Shown here piece after piece: positions 5,974 through 42,050 of a stretch of DNA of 64,000 nucleotides. Position 1 is the first letter of the stretch. The number at the start of each line of letters is the position of its first letter. A program made the position numbers and the translations under genes. Location of the stretch: sequence record HE978309. One strand, 5' to 3'. The DNA is from Enterobacteria phage GEC-3S. The notes under the pieces are model-generated. The model saw only the letters and a list, made by a program, of their open reading frames with translations, searched no databases and was not told the DNA's origin.

Positions 5974-6216
5974 TTAAATATCCTCCGCGATATGTCGGAA
6001 CAACTCCAGATCGTTTTTATCCAGAATGAAACCGCTACAATCAATAATCCCGTTACCGTAATTATCGGTTAACAGTCGTTCCGTTGCCATGTATGCGCGT
6101 ACTTTGTTGTTAAAATTCATTACATGTTGTGCATAGTCACAATGAATCTTTTGACGCTTCCACGCGACAATTGATTGTAGATGTATTACATTAGCAATAT
6201 TATTAATAACAACCAT
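5974..6216 (-). CDS. hypothetical protein (80 aa)
   Basis: ATG 6216 (MVVINN...) with SD GAGG; stop abuts dexA start. Confidence 0.5.
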   Translation of the reverse strand: MVVINNIANVIHLQSIVAWKRQKIHCDYAQHVMNFNNKVRAYMATERLLTDNYGNGIIDCSGFILDKNDLELFRHIAEDI

Positions 6217-6217
6217 A

Positions 6218-6394
6218 TCAAAAACCTCGCTTAGTGAAATGTTCTGGCATTTTATTGATACATACAGCTTGGTAGTCACGAGATTTTTTTGACGAATTAA
6301 GAGCTACGGCCAAAAAATCCTGTAACTGTTCGTTTGTCATTTTTGGCTTACACCGCGTATCTAAACTCTTCGTTCTTCTAGCTTCATTAGCCAT
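6218..6394 (-). CDS. hypothetical small protein (58 aa), tandem paralog
   Basis: hand-read; C-terminus AVCINKMPEHFTKRGF; stop-T-ATG junction with next gene. Confidence 0.4.
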   Translation of the reverse strand: MANEARRTKSLDTRCKPKMTNEQLQDFLAVALNSSKKSRDYQAVCINKMPEHFTKRGF

Positions 6395-25516: not shown

Positions 25517-26542
25517 CTAACTTTTTGCGCTATTTACTTCGGCTAAAAGTTCATCAGAAATACGCTTGACCGCCGCAAGTTCTTCCGGTTCTAGGTTTTG
25601 TTCTTCCAGATATTCATAGACCATCTGAATAGTGCTTTTAACTTCAATAACACCTGTTTCCTGTGATGCGCTACTCTCCAGCTTATGGACCACTTTTAGC
25701 TTGTGTACAACGGCCTCTAACGCGCTTTCTAACTTACTTAACCCATTATCAGCAACCGTTGCGATAAGACGCACACTAAGCCCCTTAAAGCGTTCTACAT
25801 CGATTTTATCATCTGACGGGTAAGTGATACGCACATGATAAGTTTTATCATTCTGGATAAACTCTTTTTTGTGTGTATCGGTATCGAATACCCAAAAACC
25901 ACGCGGATCGTTTTCGTCACCCGCCGTTAGTGTGTATGGTGTACCAATATACGTTACGTTACCGCCATCGCTGATAGTATGAAAATGACCAGAAAACACT
26001 TCACGGTATTTCTTGAGGAAGTCCGCACTATAACCTTCGGATTTTAGCCCTTTATAGAAATAGTAACCGGACAATTCCCAATGGCCTACACAATATTCGC
26101 TGAATGAGTTTTGAATAAACTCTAAAATCTCTGATTTGTTATCATCACAAAACCACGGGAACAGATCAAATGATACACCATCAAAGGTAACTGTTTCCGG
26201 CTTATCAATAACTTTAATACAATCATACTGGCTTAACACTTCACGCGGTGCGTTAGGCTGGATCTTGTTTCGTTTAAACATATCATGATTTCCGACCGTG
26301 ATATAACAAGTAATACCAGCCTCTTCCAGTAGCGGGATGACCTTAGTACGGTTAAATTTCATTGTTTCATGAGTTATCGCCTTGCGGCAATCAAACCAAT
26401 CCCCTGTTTGAATCCATGTCTTAATATTATGCTCTTTGGAGTATTCAACCGCTTTCTTGATGGTATCAAGAATATACTCATGCACCCACGGATCATCGCC
26501 ACCGATACCAGTATGCAGATCACCTAAAAGCAAAATTTTCAT
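25517..26542 (-). CDS. 47: recombination endonuclease subunit (Mre11/SbcD-like)
   Basis: 341 aa; calcineurin-type phosphoesterase motifs GDLH, GDWFD, GNHD. Confidence 0.9.
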   Translation of the reverse strand: MKILLLGDLHTGIGGDDPWVHEYILDTIKKAVEYSKEHNIKTWIQTGDWFDCRKAITHETMKFNRTKVIPLLEEAGITCYITVGNHDMFKRNKIQPNAPREVLSQYDCIKVIDKPETVTFDGVSFDLFPWFCDDNKSEILEFIQNSFSEYCVGHWELSGYYFYKGLKSEGYSADFLKKYREVFSGHFHTISDGGNVTYIGTPYTLTAGDENDPRGFWVFDTDTHKKEFIQNDKTYHVRITYPSDDKIDVERFKGLSVRLIATVADNGLSKLESALEAVVHKLKVVHKLESSASQETGVIEVKSTIQMVYEYLEEQNLEPEELAAVKRISDELLAEVNSAKS

Positions 26543-26594
26543 AGTCTCTTCCTCTCTTCGTTTTCGATGCTCTCACTATATCACATAAAAATAA

Positions 26595-26610
26595 AAAGGG
26601 AAACCCCTTT
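26595..26610 (-). terminator. intrinsic terminator
   Basis: AAAGGG-GUUU-CCCUUU followed by UUAUUUUU on minus strand. Confidence 0.5.
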
Positions 26611-26632
26611 CAGAGTCTCCCTTATAAAGCCA

Positions 26633-26920
26633 TTACAGCATACTTAATACCGTTTGCCGTGTACTAATCCACATAGCAGAAAGCAGTTCTGGCGTGTGTG
26701 GCTGTTTGTAGATATCACGTAACTTTCCGATAGCGTAGATATACGCATCACGGTTATCATCGATGATAGCTTGTTCAGCCCACCGCTTAAGGCGTGCAAT
26801 CTCTCGCGAGTTCTTACGCAAGATCTTTTCCGCTTTCTTAGCGGCTTTAGCCTCTAGTTCTGCTTGTACTTTGTCTACTTCATTCACTGCAATCTGGTCA
26901 TGCTGTTCATCGTAAGTCAT
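26633..26920 (-). CDS. hypothetical protein (95 aa)
   Basis: ATG 26920 with SD GGAAGGAAA; track start is TTG. Confidence 0.45.
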   Translation of the reverse strand: MTYDEQHDQIAVNEVDKVQAELEAKAAKKAEKILRKNSREIARLKRWAEQAIIDDNRDAYIYAIGKLRDIYKQPHTPELLSAMWISTRQTVLSML

Positions 26921-26921
26921 G

Positions 26922-27155
26922 TTATTTTCCTTCCGGGATATAGTCAATTATTAAAGAAAATTCATCTTCTGATACATTATAGCTATGTGAGATTGTACCC
27001 GTAAAGACCTCAAGATCCGGTGATTTGATATTGCACGGATCGATAATCACCGGAACGCCGCAATCTCTCAAAAATAATTTGGCGAAATACGGCACAAGGT
27101 CAGTTTCAAACTCTGCTTCTTCCAGCAAACGGGAAATGTTAATTTTCAATCTCAT
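26922..27155 (-). CDS. hypothetical protein (77 aa)
   Basis: ATG; overlaps gp55 stop. Confidence 0.45.
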
Positions 27156-37858: not shown

Positions 37859-38421
37859 GCGTTAAATGACTTTTGGATCTCTTTCAGTTCAGCTACTTTA
37901 TAGGCGCTGAATTTAGCGTAGGTATCATGTCGAATAATTTCACTTTCAAGAAAGGTTTCCAGCCGAGATCTATTTTCAATAAGGAACTCTTTCAGGTCTT
38001 CCGCGTTCTTGATAAAGATTTTATTGTCAGTAATGTCATCTTCAATCGCAAAGGAGATAGAGCGAACTTTACCAAACAAGTTAATCAGATCTTCCAGAGA
38101 TTCTTCTTTCTTAACTGGTTTCATTTCTTCAAACTGCTTTTTAGTGATGCGTTTAAAGTATTTGCGCTCGTTTGCAGCAATCAGAACAGATGCACCTTCA
38201 TACCCATGAGTTTCTACCAGATACACACGCCCCATCGCATCAACAGTGAGAACTTTAAAGCCGTTACAAAGCACGTCATACAAGAACTTATTATGTTGCG
38301 GACATCGTTTGATAAATTCTGCGGCTGTTTCTGCACTACGGAAAGTATAGTAACGACCTCGTTCAAAAACAGCATCATTTGAAGACTTAGCCGGATACAC
38401 TTTATACATTTTCTGTACCAT
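37855..38421 (-). CDS. paralog family B protein (188 aa)
   Basis: start at ATG 38421 with SD GAGGATTATATT; motif NERKYFKRITKKQFEEM. Confidence 0.5.
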   Translation of the reverse strand: MVQKMYKVYPAKSSNDAVFERGRYYTFRSAETAAEFIKRCPQHNKFLYDVLCNGFKVLTVDAMGRVYLVETHGYEGASVLIAANERKYFKRITKKQFEEMKPVKKEESLEDLINLFGKVRSISFAIEDDITDNKIFIKNAEDLKEFLIENRSRLETFLESEIIRHDTYAKFSAYKVAELKEIQKSFNA

Positions 38422-38435
38422 AATATAATCCTCTA

Positions 38436-38708
38436 TCATTTCACTAATTGAACAGCACGAAACAGAATGCGGTCACACGGAAGCAGCATAAATTCCCAAC
38501 GCGGATCAAAGTCTTTAGCGGTATATGTTTTCCCATCAACCGAGATTTCACTTACATAACCAATAGGTGACACTTTAAGAACAGTAAATCCATTCTTGAT
38601 TGCTTCGTAGGTATCTTTCAGACCTTCGTAGTCGTCCTCTAAGAAGTCTTTATGTGCTTGCTCAGATTTAAAAACATAGGCCACACCGGATTTAAACATC
38701 TTACGCAT
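38436..38708 (-). CDS. paralog family B protein (90 aa)
   Basis: start at ATG 38708 with SD AAGGAGAATCAACA; track extension overlaps promoter. Confidence 0.45.
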   Translation of the reverse strand: MRKMFKSGVAYVFKSEQAHKDFLEDDYEGLKDTYEAIKNGFTVLKVSPIGYVSEISVDGKTYTAKDFDPRWEFMLLPCDRILFRAVQLVK

Positions 38709-38739
38709 TGTTGATTCTCCTTCTTGATTAGATGGGAGC

Positions 38740-38768
38740 ATTTTACTACTCCCATTTCTTATTGTCAA
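38740..38768 (-). promoter_or_regulatory. early promoter (TTGACA-N17-TAAAAT) inside GGGAGTAG/GCTCCC palindrome
   Basis: minus-strand read. Confidence 0.5.
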
Positions 38769-38771
38769 CTA

Positions 38772-39245
38772 CTATCTTAATCTTTGTATGAATTGTTTCT
38801 TATACTTCTTCGTGATTTCTTCTCGTGTATCAGCGTCGCAGTAATCGAAACCTTCTGCGTCCATAATAGCAACCATCTCCGCTCGTGTCAAGCGTGAAAA
38901 TCGTTTTACTTTATCAACAGCATATTGAGGATGTAAATGATTGTTGGTGTAGTCTCCTTTGATGTAATTAACATAGTTTGTAGCCCAAACAACGAAATCA
39001 GCACCTAAAGCACCAACACCAAACCGTTTAAAGTCTCCGGTCAACGATCCTTCTAGGCGGTTGCAACACGAATGAAGCAATCCCCTTACGCGGCCTTGCC
39101 CTTTCCCATCTAGATCGTGGTCGTGGTCAAGATGGTTTTTGCTCATATCCTCAAAAAGTGGCAATTGACAAAGGGGGCAAATGCCCCCCTGTTTTTCGAA
39201 TAGTTCTTGTTTGTACTCTTTAGCACTCTTAGCAGTCAGTAACAT
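38772..39245 (-). CDS. 49: recombination endonuclease VII (Holliday junction resolvase)
   Basis: 157 aa from ATG 39245 with SD GGAGGGTG; zinc site CPLCQ...CCNRLEG and HLDHDHD as in T4 gp49. Confidence 0.85.
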   Translation of the reverse strand: MLLTAKSAKEYKQELFEKQGGICPLCQLPLFEDMSKNHLDHDHDLDGKGQGRVRGLLHSCCNRLEGSLTGDFKRFGVGALGADFVVWATNYVNYIKGDYTNNHLHPQYAVDKVKRFSRLTRAEMVAIMDAEGFDYCDADTREEITKKYKKQFIQRLR

Positions 39246-39269
39246 AAATTCACCCTCCAAAGAAGGTAT

Positions 39270-39551
39270 TTAACCATTAATCTTGTTTTTGACTACAAAG
39301 GATCGGAACTCATCAAAACCACCGATATAATCACCATCATAGAAAATCTGCGGCATGGTGGCAATAACTTCTACCCCTGCGCGATCCTGAATATCGGCAA
39401 TGATAGAATCAATCTTTACCGGGCGACCGTTTTCGTCCACACCATCATTAACCGGAATGTAGATGTAAGGGATCTTACGCGCTTCACAAAGGCGCTTTGC
39501 ATTCTGGCAATACTTACAGTTGTAACCTTCAAAACCAAAAATTTCTACCAT
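39270..39551 (-). CDS. nrdC: thioredoxin/glutaredoxin (NrdC-like)
   Basis: 93 aa from ATG 39551 with SD GAGGT; CKYCQNAKRL redox motif; C-terminal PQIFYDGDYIGGFDEFR. Confidence 0.7.
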   Translation of the reverse strand: MVEIFGFEGYNCKYCQNAKRLCEARKIPYIYIPVNDGVDENGRPVKIDSIIADIQDRAGVEVIATMPQIFYDGDYIGGFDEFRSFVVKNKING

Positions 39552-39552
39552 G

Positions 39553-40308
39553 TTATACCTCATTCAGTTCTATATCAAGTTCATTTTCAATAATATAGGC
39601 ATTAACTGCCCGTGCCGCATCATCTTCTGTGTCAAATCTTCCTATATACACACCGCGAACTTTAGCACCGTAATTACCTTGTTTTGGTACTTTGTAAACG
39701 TATCTATGACGGGAACTTGCTGCTTTTTGGAGCTTCTTGCCATATTCAGACTTTGCATATTCTATATCATCAATCTCGTTTATACAAGACCTATCACCAA
39801 AATGTTTCAACGCTGCAAGATTATATGCATACGCCGCACCGATCTCGGAGGGAAAATATCCTAAATGTATAGACTTCCCATCCAACATTATTGCACCAGT
39901 CCAATAACCTTTATTCTTATTAAACGACACACCTTTATACTTCGAATATGTTTTGCATTTGGTCTTGCTCATATTCATATTATTTTGTTTGCTTGTCGTC
40001 TCTCTAAGGTTTTCAATGCGGCTATTATAACGATCTCGGTCTTTATGATCTATATACTTAGGACAATGACCATGAAACATATGATAGATAACACGGTGCA
40101 TACGTTCGTATCGCTCGCCAGTCCATACAATACGATACCCATCGGGGGTATCACTTCCAGCTAATCCGTTTATAACACCTTTTCGGTGCGGGTGAATCTT
40201 CCACCTAAGAAAACCATCATCATAATAAAACCGTGAATGATATAAATCATATAAACGTTTATCTTCTGGAGTCTTGTGTATAACCTCATATTTTAACATT
40301 GGTGACAT
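39553..40308 (-). CDS. HNH homing endonuclease with AP2-type DNA-binding domains
   Basis: 251 aa; HNH core IDHKDRDRYNSRIENLR; two AP2-like segments; overlaps both neighbours. Confidence 0.7.
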   Translation of the reverse strand: MSPMLKYEVIHKTPEDKRLYDLYHSRFYYDDGFLRWKIHPHRKGVINGLAGSDTPDGYRIVWTGERYERMHRVIYHMFHGHCPKYIDHKDRDRYNSRIENLRETTSKQNNMNMSKTKCKTYSKYKGVSFNKNKGYWTGAIMLDGKSIHLGYFPSEIGAAYAYNLAALKHFGDRSCINEIDDIEYAKSEYGKKLQKAASSRHRYVYKVPKQGNYGAKVRGVYIGRFDTEDDAARAVNAYIIENELDIELNEV

Positions 40309-41101
40309 AAACTTCCTTAGTATCGGATTTTTTACCCCCGCTACGATCTAAACAATATGTTTTATCCAGTTCAACAACAGAAACATCATTACGTTCGATA
40401 AAATCAAGCAAATGGTTGTTAACTTTCCCTTTGTGGTGAGTAACATTGCTTAATCCAAACTTAGCACCGCTAGACATTAATGATTCTATCCACATGTAGA
40501 ATTTAATCTCTTCTTCTTCACTCCAGAACTTATTATATTCTGCCGACGTGATCCAATATGGCGGATCAAGGAAAACGAAATCACCTGGCAAGATCTCGAT
40601 CTCGTCATAGCGACCAGACGTAAAACTGATTCGACCGTCTTTGTTTTCTTCCTTAAAATTCAGGACACGCTCTACCGCGTTTTCGTTAAAAGTCCGGCGA
40701 CCAAAATTAGCATTAAATTCTCCCTTTCGGTTATGGCGGTTAATGTTGCTAAAACTGTGCTGAATCAACACAAACAGCGATAGCGGATCTGGATTCTCGT
40801 TATACTTCTTACGGAATGTCATGTAAGCGTCTTTATCTTCGCGAGACAAACCATTTTCGGCAATAATACGCTTGATCGTAGAAACCGGATCAGGACACTC
40901 GTCAATCGCTTTGTACGCGTCAATTAAGCGGTGATCATAGTCATTAGCCAGCACATCACCTTCGACGTACAGAGACACGCTCAAGCCTCCACAGAAGGCA
41001 TCAACAAAGCGGTTATAGCGCTTAGGGAAATACTTACTAACACCTGGCAATAGCTTTTCCTTATTGCCAGTATAGGGAATTAAACCTAATGCTTTCTTCA
41101 T
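40286..41101 (-). CDS. dam: DNA adenine methyltransferase
   Basis: 271 aa; motif I FVDAFCGGLSV and motif IV DPPY; close to T4 Dam sequence. Confidence 0.9.
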   Translation of the reverse strand: MKKALGLIPYTGNKEKLLPGVSKYFPKRYNRFVDAFCGGLSVSLYVEGDVLANDYDHRLIDAYKAIDECPDPVSTIKRIIAENGLSREDKDAYMTFRKKYNENPDPLSLFVLIQHSFSNINRHNRKGEFNANFGRRTFNENAVERVLNFKEENKDGRISFTSGRYDEIEILPGDFVFLDPPYWITSAEYNKFWSEEEEIKFYMWIESLMSSGAKFGLSNVTHHKGKVNNHLLDFIERNDVSVVELDKTYCLDRSGGKKSDTKEVYVTNVKI

Positions 41102-41532
41102 TATCCCTTCCTCAAATAAGTTCGCTCAATCTCTACCCGTTCGAAAAAATCTTGCCAGTCGCAAGGAAAATTGCAGTTTCCGAAATGATCCTCTTTGTAA
41201 AGTTCTTTACCGGATGGCAGCTTAATATCTGTTACGCTGTAGTATCCGCAACAATCGCAATCACCATCTGTATATTCTGTTTTGGTAGGAATATCCATCA
41301 TTGCCAGATACAAAGGTACATCGTCTTGCTCAAAGTTCATGTAACCTTCATGGTCGAATGAAACAAAGTTATCATCGCCACCGAAAGGGATATAATGGTC
41401 ATAATCGGTTACAGGTTGACCGTGCAATTCCCATTCTACAATTTTAACATTACCGCTAAACTTGATACCCATAATTTCAACAAGAAAATGAGTATCGTCA
41501 ATGTAAATCTTACTAGGAGTTGGATAACCCAT
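41101..41532 (-). CDS. hypothetical Cys-rich protein (143 aa)
   Basis: ATG with SD GAGGATTATATA. Confidence 0.5.
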   Translation of the reverse strand: MGYPTPSKIYIDDTHFLVEIMGIKFSGNVKIVEWELHGQPVTDYDHYIPFGGDDNFVSFDHEGYMNFEQDDVPLYLAMMDIPTKTEYTDGDCDCCGYYSVTDIKLPSGKELYKEDHFGNCNFPCDWQDFFERVEIERTYLRKG

Positions 41533-41542
41533 TATATAATCC

Positions 41543-41836
41543 TCATATCTCAGAGAATAGAATCTCTGTTAGCTTCACTGACTGCTCTCTGAATGTTAGC
41601 GTATACTCGAAAGGAAAGTCAACACCCAACTTCAAAAGAGAATAGCCTACCGCCTCTTTATGCTTATCGGTTAGGGCGATCCTAACCAATTCCCGTTGAA
41701 TCTCTTTAGGCGGTGAATGGATAGTAACACGGGTATCATGTAATGTCCAGTCACCATTTCGAATTAAGATTAACGGTTTATCATCATTGAAGATCACCGA
41801 CCCCTTTCCGGTCGGTGAGTGTTTTATACTAATCAT
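41543..41836 (-). CDS. hypothetical protein (97 aa)
   Basis: ATG 41836; track M1 is TTG. Confidence 0.45.
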   Translation of the reverse strand: MISIKHSPTGKGSVIFNDDKPLILIRNGDWTLHDTRVTIHSPPKEIQRELVRIALTDKHKEAVGYSLLKLGVDFPFEYTLTFREQSVKLTEILFSEI

Positions 41837-42050
41837 CAAATTCTAAGAAATATTCTGGAACGATATAACCGTTAAAGTCATTGCACTTATAAAAATGTGG
41901 TGCATTTAATGCTGGATGAGCATTAGTAAAGAGTTTACCCTCTAGAAACAGAATGTAATTAATCGGTCTAATACCGACAGAATCAGGGTCTAAACCTTTT
42001 TCTTTCAGTTCAGCCAGCGTTAAAACTCGTCCAGATCTTAACTTAGCCAT
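41829..42050 (-). CDS. hypothetical protein (73 aa)
   Basis: ATG; overlaps neighbours. Confidence 0.45.
   Translation of the reverse strand: MAKLRSGRVLTLAELKEKGLDPDSVGIRPINYILFLEGKLFTNAHPALNAPHFYKCNDFNGYIVPEYFLEFDD

Follow-up and report, generated by a model that had tools for sequence, protein, structure and literature searches.

A probable free-standing HNH-AP2 homing endonuclease gene between dam and nrdC of Krischvirus phages

The genome of Enterobacteria phage GEC-3S (HE978309) carries, between the genes dam and nrdC, a gene whose product matches the PHROG 99 family "HNH endonuclease" (E = 5.6e-56). Is this gene a mobile element of the free-standing homing type, as was originally predicted, or does its product serve some other purpose in the phage? 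The question was addressed with a 64,000-nucleotide stretch of the genome, called here the window, in which all coordinates below are given. The gene occupies positions 39553..40308 on the minus strand, including the stop codon, and the ORF list shows an intact frame of 251 amino acids with an ATG start and a TAA stop. The ORF list, Pfam and PHROG 99 together identify it as a free-standing gene of the HNH-AP2 class. Our analysis indicates, with a probability of roughly 0.8, that a free-standing HNH-AP2 homing endonuclease gene resides in what is otherwise an 8-nucleotide dam-nrdC spacer and that it has spread horizontally within the phage genus.

With respect to transcription, dam (40286..41101, minus strand) is the upstream neighbor; it encodes a D12-class N6-adenine methyltransferase of 271 amino acids (Pfam MethyltransfD12, 6e-30). 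On the other side lies nrdC (39270..39551, minus strand), whose glutaredoxin-like product of 93 amino acids matches Pfam Glutaredoxin; the gene is annotated as nrdC in RB49, Sf20 and phiS, and gene 49 (endonuclease VII) is located downstream of it. The endonuclease gene was predicted to overlap both neighbors, by about 23 nucleotides in the case of dam. The overlap with dam is exactly 23 nucleotides (40286-40308). The overlap with nrdC disappears on inspection, since it arises only with the longest nrdC ORF (ATG at 39563) and is an artefact of choosing that ORF. The nrdC start used in all relatives is the ATG at 39551, which is also the sole start available in phages that lack the insert, and with this conserved start a single nucleotide separates nrdC from the endonuclease stop codon (39553-39555). 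The Shine-Dalgarno sequence of nrdC (GAGG) falls within the final codons of the endonuclease gene. The latter is an ORF in its own right, intergenic between the dam stop and the nrdC start, with no enclosing intron or intein. A tblastn search for other copies within the 64-kb window, using the protein as query, returned only the gene itself. As a separate observation, a small ORF located two genes upstream of dam (41543..41839, minus strand) is annotated with a length of 255 nucleotides in some relatives and 294 nucleotides in others, which is a difference in start codon or annotation.

The window is collinear with the RB49 genome (NC_005066) from RB49 nucleotide 1, as judged by blastn, and GEC-3S is a Krischvirus, an RB49-like "pseudo-T-even" relative of T4. 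The T-even setting in which the gene was originally placed is therefore right in that the phage is a T4-like relative, and wrong in that an RB49-like phage is not a T-even phage proper. In the same comparison, window positions 6270-6391, a segment of about 120 nucleotides, have no blastn match at the RB49 counterpart, where the flanking alignments overlap by 58 nucleotides (RB49 6212-6269). Here, a short piece of the dexA-dda region has been replaced or inserted.

If the gene is mobile, its presence at the dam-nrdC junction should vary among related phages, and a comparison of this junction had been proposed along with the original prediction. A megablast search with positions 38700-41200 as the query retrieved 57 Krischvirus records. 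The full query is covered in six of them (ELT3, vB_ESM-pEJ01, Sf20, KMB43, PHB13 and phiS), and these carriers have the gene always at the same dam-nrdC site. The other 51 records match in two pieces with approximately 730 nucleotides skipped and have an empty site, in which, as in RB49, 8 nucleotides lie between the dam stop and the nrdC start. This distribution fits a mobile free-standing gene. Far from being fixed in all relatives with no sign of mobility, the gene is absent from most of them, and carriers share flanking haplotypes with non-carriers, as described below.

The encoded protein is 99.2-100% identical in the six carrier records by tblastn, and the next best match outside the carriers among 50,697 phage records is 43.6% identical. 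The closest paralogs within Krischvirus, also by tblastn, are at most 44% identical and are located at other sites. The ORF is intact in all seven genomes, that is, in the window and the six carriers. Four of the six carrier records (Sf20 gp204, ELT3_198, KMB43 and phiS) annotate the gene as "(HNH/putative) homing endonuclease"; the gene class is already known, and proteins of 99-100% identity are already labelled homing endonuclease in GenBank. In the literature, we found no report on this gene or site, and none on cleavage, target or biased inheritance for this protein.

The protein appears to consist of an I-HmuI-like N-terminal half, comprising a DNA-contacting sheet and an HNH (His-Me finger) active site, followed by two AP2 modules. 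The predicted catalytic core, amino acids 70-111 (39976..40101, minus strand), matches Pfam HNH_3 (PF13392) with an E value of 2e-13 and a score of 50.2 bits versus a cut-off of 24.8. It contains D87, H88, N100 and N109, and in an alignment of 59 family members each of the residues D87, H88, N100, L101, R102, N109 and N112 is at least 90% conserved. A profile made from this alignment matches I-HmuI (PDB 1U3E), the HNH homing endonuclease of Bacillus phage SPO1, at 2.3e-11 over I-HmuI residues 3-104. The DH...N motif aligns at a constant offset of +13, such that D87, H88 and N109 correspond to D74, H75 and N96 of I-HmuI. The roles of the I-HmuI active-site residues were reportedly worked out by Shen et al. 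in 2004. Judged by these alignments, the catalytic residues (an Asp-His general base pair, a structural Asn and a metal-binding Asn) are intact, and the HNH core that had been claimed for this gene is borne out.

Two AP2-like segments had also been claimed. The first (amino acids 122-173; 39790..39945, minus strand) is recognizable from sequence, as Pfam AP2 (PF00847) matches amino acids 122-168 with an E value of 1.1e-8 and 35.6 bits versus a gathering cut-off of 33.3. The best PDB match, to the plant tandem-AP2 protein WRI1 (PDB 7WQ5), was obtained at 4.8e-10 by sequence and at 3.2e-23 by profile. The second segment (amino acids 200-241; 39586..39711, minus strand) is weak by sequence, with 14 bits and an E value of 0.065 against Pfam AP2, which is below threshold. 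However, approximately the same residues align with the second AP2 of two-AP2 relatives in the 59-sequence alignment, and the predicted fold agrees. An AlphaFold2 model of the protein (pLDDT 93.7, pTM 0.76) is fully folded. In the HNH region, it has a predicted beta-beta-alpha-metal fold with strands at 85-88 and 101-104 and then a helix at 106-111. The first AP2 unit is modeled with strands at 127-130, 135-142 and 145-152 and a helix at 155-173, and the second unit with strands at 204-206, 213-217 and 220-225 and a helix at 228-241, at a pLDDT above 90. Because the model has two consecutive three-strand-plus-helix units, and because the alignment agrees with it, the description "HNH plus two AP2-like" seems right, with a second AP2 unit that is probably present in degenerate form, as suggested by the alignment and the predicted fold. 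The best Foldseek match in the PDB is again the double-AP2 protein WRI1 (5.7e-7, 165 columns); ERF1 (1gcc; TM 0.78, rmsd 1.9) and I-HmuI (probability 0.87) are also matched. The family is large, with 97,827 cluster representatives in a HMMER search at E <= 1e-3 and 18,249 at E <= 1e-10, and two or more AP2 repeats are found in many of its members.

Comparison of occupied and empty sites reveals that the junctions of the insert are sharp and asymmetric, being conserved on the nrdC side and accompanied by about 300 divergent nucleotides on the dam side. On the nrdC side, identity to RB49 is 99-100% right to the junction. On the dam side, it is 58-78% from 40286 to approximately 40581-40600, and 98-100% thereafter. 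The alignment of the two kinds of sites places the right junction at TGAGGTATAAC (39552..39562, minus strand). This sequence is the native spacer between the dam stop and the nrdC Shine-Dalgarno sequence; its bases now serve as the final codons (E V stop) of the endonuclease gene, and the nrdC Shine-Dalgarno sequence is preserved. A near-copy, TGAGGTTATACAC, is found at the left junction (40276-40288).

The divergent tract is the 3' part of dam (40286..40581, minus strand), delimited by identity to RB49 and to the other carriers, and it extends from the DPPY motif to the Dam C-terminus. Dam of GEC-3S differs from RB49 Dam at four positions in the first 176 amino acids, whereas about 20% of the last 95 differ, beginning at the DPPY motif. 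Thus, dam of GEC-3S is a mosaic of a native 5' two thirds and a foreign 3' third. When a 275-nucleotide query from the dam 3' region was used, identity was at least 98.9% in all six carriers and 71.0-74.8% in all 51 non-carriers; the linkage of the endonuclease gene to the divergent dam 3' allele is complete. The mean distance between carriers and non-carriers in this region is 0.29. One carrier shows a further peculiarity, in that a run of G residues close to the 3' end of phiS dam (PP449093; window ~40337-40341) is six long and not five, which shifts the frame, and the phiS record annotates a shortened methylase gene of 771 nucleotides. Either the frameshift is genuine or the homopolymer was misread in sequencing.

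The origin of the foreign segment can be narrowed down to some extent. Outside the carriers, the nearest Dam C-termini in the phage collection are those of ordinary Krischvirus Dam proteins, at 80% amino acid identity, versus 50% or less in other genera. The donor was therefore presumably an unsampled Krischvirus-like lineage, and we infer that the block first entered from such a phage. Searches for the donor gave nothing close in IMG/VR, with either the endonuclease or the Dam C-terminus as the query. With the Dam C-terminus, the best identity over long matches in JGI metagenomes was 47%, and a collection of 5.8 billion proteins yielded only nine candidates, none informative.

To follow the block through the genus, an alignment of approximately 10.5 kb was built from GEC-3S, the six carriers and ten of the non-carriers. 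Among the seven genomes with the gene, the endonuclease gene has a nucleotide diversity of 0.0049 and the dam 3' tract one of 0.009, compared with 0.02-0.125 in flanking intervals of 500 nucleotides. In these flanks, carriers are as distant from non-carriers as the members of each group are from one another, and the closest flank neighbors of most carriers are non-carriers. Those of GEC-3S are MIZ4 for the left flank and JEP8 for the right; PHB13 goes with G2494, and pEJ01 with JEP8 and G2494. SNP haplotypes in nrdC and gene 49 are common to Sf20 and JSE/ECD7, to pEJ01 and JEP8/LF73P4, and to GEC-3S and Cognac/Phi1. The mobile block comprises about 1 kb, and its limits are identical in all carriers (39566 to ~40581). 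Because a near-invariant block of this size sits on diverse flanks that have non-carrier haplotypes, it has moved between lineages. The block is young relative to its surroundings and is present on several backgrounds, which is the pattern left by a homing element.

The flanks are themselves mosaic on a fine scale, as is illustrated by two segments. Positions 38200-38400 form a two-haplotype block that is 79-85% identical to RB49, and positions 41199-41390 exist in two alternative versions that are common to KMB43, PHB13, phiS, MIZ4 and UPWr_E1.

This mosaicism, which is found everywhere in Krischvirus flanks, bears on the most serious rival explanation. According to this explanation, the gene is an inactive or domesticated remnant that entered once from a divergent phage and was then spread passively by homologous recombination, its product no longer cutting DNA or having acquired another role in the phage, such as the exclusion of co-infecting relatives without homing. 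Ordinary recombination in freely recombining Krischviruses could equally place a neutral block on many backgrounds, and the diversity pattern alone does not separate this process from nuclease-driven homing. A remnant would also be in keeping with the low frequency of the gene (6 of 57 records), with block limits that are the same in every carrier and with the degenerate second AP2 unit, and several mob genes of T4 likewise lack demonstrated activity (PMC2988022, Table 1). A gene frequency of about 10% does not suggest strong ongoing drive. However, the reading frame is intact in seven of seven genomes, the protein is conserved at 99.2-100% identity with all conserved HNH residues kept, and the predicted model is fully folded. 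Moreover, the diversity of the block is 4-20 times lower than that of the flanks, which argues for recent spread and against old passive residence. We therefore regard an inactive remnant as unlikely, and the gene is best read, from sequence comparisons, as an active or recently active free-standing homing endonuclease. The original claim of a free-standing homing endonuclease is upheld in this sense by the polymorphism of the site, the linkage to the dam 3' allele, the haplotypes held in common with non-carriers and the intact catalytic residues.

If the enzyme is active, the events that spread the gene would take place in mixed infections. By analogy with T4 MobA/MobE and I-HmuI, the enzyme would bind an extended, asymmetric sequence of the allele that lacks the gene and nick or cut this allele, and the recombination-repair system of the phage would then copy the gene, together with adjacent sequence, from the carrier genome. 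The chemistry expected from the same analogy is a single-strand nick in a neighboring conserved gene (PMC2988022).

Where might such an enzyme cut? Since a carrier genome has to escape its own enzyme, the target is expected within sequence that distinguishes carriers from non-carriers, which would be the dam 3' tract or the junction that is split by the insert. The likeliest location is the 3' part of dam close to the DPPY codons, with the dam/nrdC junction as the alternative. nrdC is an unlikely target because it is identical in carriers and non-carriers. An attempt to locate the target from the limits of the block was rejected; these limits do not vary among carriers and fall where the sequences become homologous again, as expected if they are set by homology and not by the cut site, and so they do not locate the target.

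A more specific indication may come from the endonuclease-free phages MIZ4 (OR167180) and MIZ5, which have a 62-nucleotide patch of carrier-type dam sequence with non-carrier sequence on both sides. The patch (40497..40558, minus strand) lies immediately downstream of the DPPY codons and is a candidate for the target or for a resistance region. It could be a repair scar that confers resistance, or it could be plain mosaicism. Combining these observations, we tentatively propose, as a possibility that we consider more doubtful than probable, that cleavage takes place in dam where the DPPY motif is encoded, approximately 250-270 bp away from the endonuclease gene, that each homing event consequently exchanges the entire catalytic C-terminal third of Dam, from motif IV onwards, for a foreign allele, and that the patch in MIZ4 and MIZ5 is a resistance scar marking the recognition site. 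If this proposal is true, the element drives modular exchange in a DNA methyltransferase.

The gene presumably depends on its neighbors for expression. A putative Shine-Dalgarno sequence, AAGGAA (40313..40318, minus strand), is located within the dam coding sequence, 4 nucleotides before the endonuclease ATG. At the same place, RB49 has CAAGAA, and the corresponding ATG is directly followed by TAA. Sigma-70-like sites occur at chance level around the gene, so no promoter of its own was recognized, and the T4 late promoter sequence TATAAATA is not found within 8 kb of the gene. Terminator-like matches are not positioned to isolate it. Some T4 endonuclease genes have an RNA hairpin that masks the ribosome-binding site; here, the predicted fold at the start of the gene is no better than that of shuffled sequences (z = 0.13). 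Because neither a promoter nor a terminator sets the gene apart, read-through is the simplest assumption, and expression probably occurs by read-through of the dam-nrdC-49 early transcript, with translation from the Shine-Dalgarno sequence and ATG in the foreign dam 3' end.

The AP2 modules permit another interpretation, in which the protein is a regulator of transcription or replication in the dam-nrdC-49 region and its HNH part is vestigial. AP2 domains are sequence-specific DNA binders that function in transcription factors of plants and apicomplexans, and phage satellites have recruited DNA-binding domains of homing endonuclease genes as repressors (PMC10448857). The interpretation was nevertheless rejected as highly improbable. 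A vestigial HNH part is at odds with the conserved catalytic residues, the gene is dispensable, given its absence from 51 of 57 relatives, and the architecture is that of the HNH-AP2 endonuclease family, whose members are scattered over intergenic sites.

HNH proteins encoded beside terminase genes are common in phages, and gene 49, whose product is the packaging and recombination endonuclease VII, is two genes away, but a packaging-associated role like that of the HNH proteins that assist terminases in cos-type phages is effectively refuted by the absence of the gene from 51 of 57 viable relatives, in addition to which the gene is not adjacent to terminase genes, T4-like phages package by a headful mechanism, and the protein matches HNH_3/I-HmuI-like homing enzymes with AP2 modules and not terminase-associated HNH proteins.

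A free-standing homing endonuclease gene at this site has little consequence beyond annotation. What is mildly new is the tight linkage of the gene to a foreign 3' third of dam, the population signature of its spread and the patch in MIZ4 and MIZ5. The locus provides a clean natural example of a mobile block of about 1 kb that has sharp, asymmetric borders and population-level evidence of spread, and it might lend itself to straightforward tests of target choice and co-conversion reach of HNH-AP2 enzymes. A practical caution is that Krischvirus dam is mosaic when it is used as a marker.

The AP2-HNH endonucleases were described as a class in phages, cyanobacteria and ciliates (Magnani, Sjolander and Hake 2004, cited in PMC1524935), and RB49 ORF040 (RB49p040) and RB43 ORF027 have been noted as HNH-AP2 genes (Nolan et al. 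2006, PMC1524935). The GEC-3S gene resembles this class in having an HNH_3 core followed by AP2 modules, in being free-standing and intergenic in the same phage genus, and in being present or absent between close relatives. It is distinct, by description, from RB49p040, whose product has 184 amino acids and a single AP2 and whose neighbors are gene 47 and a-gt.4, whereas the gene studied here encodes two AP2 units and lies between dam and nrdC. RB49p040 (NC_005066 nucleotides 26366-26930) is absent from the window, where the junction is at ~26540; thus, RB49 and GEC-3S each have the HNH-AP2 gene that the other lacks. Another T4-like phage has a relative with 51% identity as a free-standing gene flanked by regA and gene 43, which fits a family that colonizes intergenic sites beside conserved genes. 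Separately, nrdD of JSE, and apparently of phiS, is annotated as a short piece of 879 nucleotides, and in JSE a "Homing endonuclease" ORF adjoins nrdD, which suggests another endonuclease insertion in nrdD of some Krischviruses.

Free-standing HNH genes and co-conversion tracts in T4-like phages have been reviewed (PMC2988022). The MobE and MobA proteins of T4 are free-standing HNH enzymes that nick a neighboring gene; in mixed infection, their genes are inherited in excess, with co-conversion of flanking markers (PMC2988022). By description, the GEC-3S gene is similar to their genes as an intergenic HNH gene beside conserved genes of nucleotide metabolism. MobE and MobA differ in having no AP2 in the C-terminal DNA-binding region, and their activity is demonstrated, whereas that of the GEC-3S protein is predicted from sequence. 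The T4 SegG/SegF system, in which a distant cut inside the adjacent gene is followed by long co-conversion tracts (Liu et al. 2003, cited in PMC2988022), offers a model for replacement of the dam 3' region in GEC-3S, where the cut site may likewise be distant. However, SegG and SegF belong to the GIY-YIG nuclease family and not to the HNH enzymes.

At the level of the protein, I-HmuI shares the N-terminal DNA-contacting sheet and the HNH site, but it is encoded in a group I intron, has helical and helix-turn-helix C-terminal modules in place of AP2, and nicks one strand. The plant double-AP2 factors share the tandem AP2 arrangement, but they have no nuclease domain and act as regulators, not as enzymes of mobile elements. 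The IPA-HNH endonucleases of the vibriophage ICP1, which are found at the boundaries of recombination blocks (Barth, Dunham and Seed 2023, PMC10448857), combine an N-terminal HNH domain with C-terminal AP2 and repetitive DNA-binding modules, and their genes also lie beside essential or conserved genes. They come from another phage lineage, and their cores are too divergent for Pfam HNH_3, which the GEC-3S protein matches.
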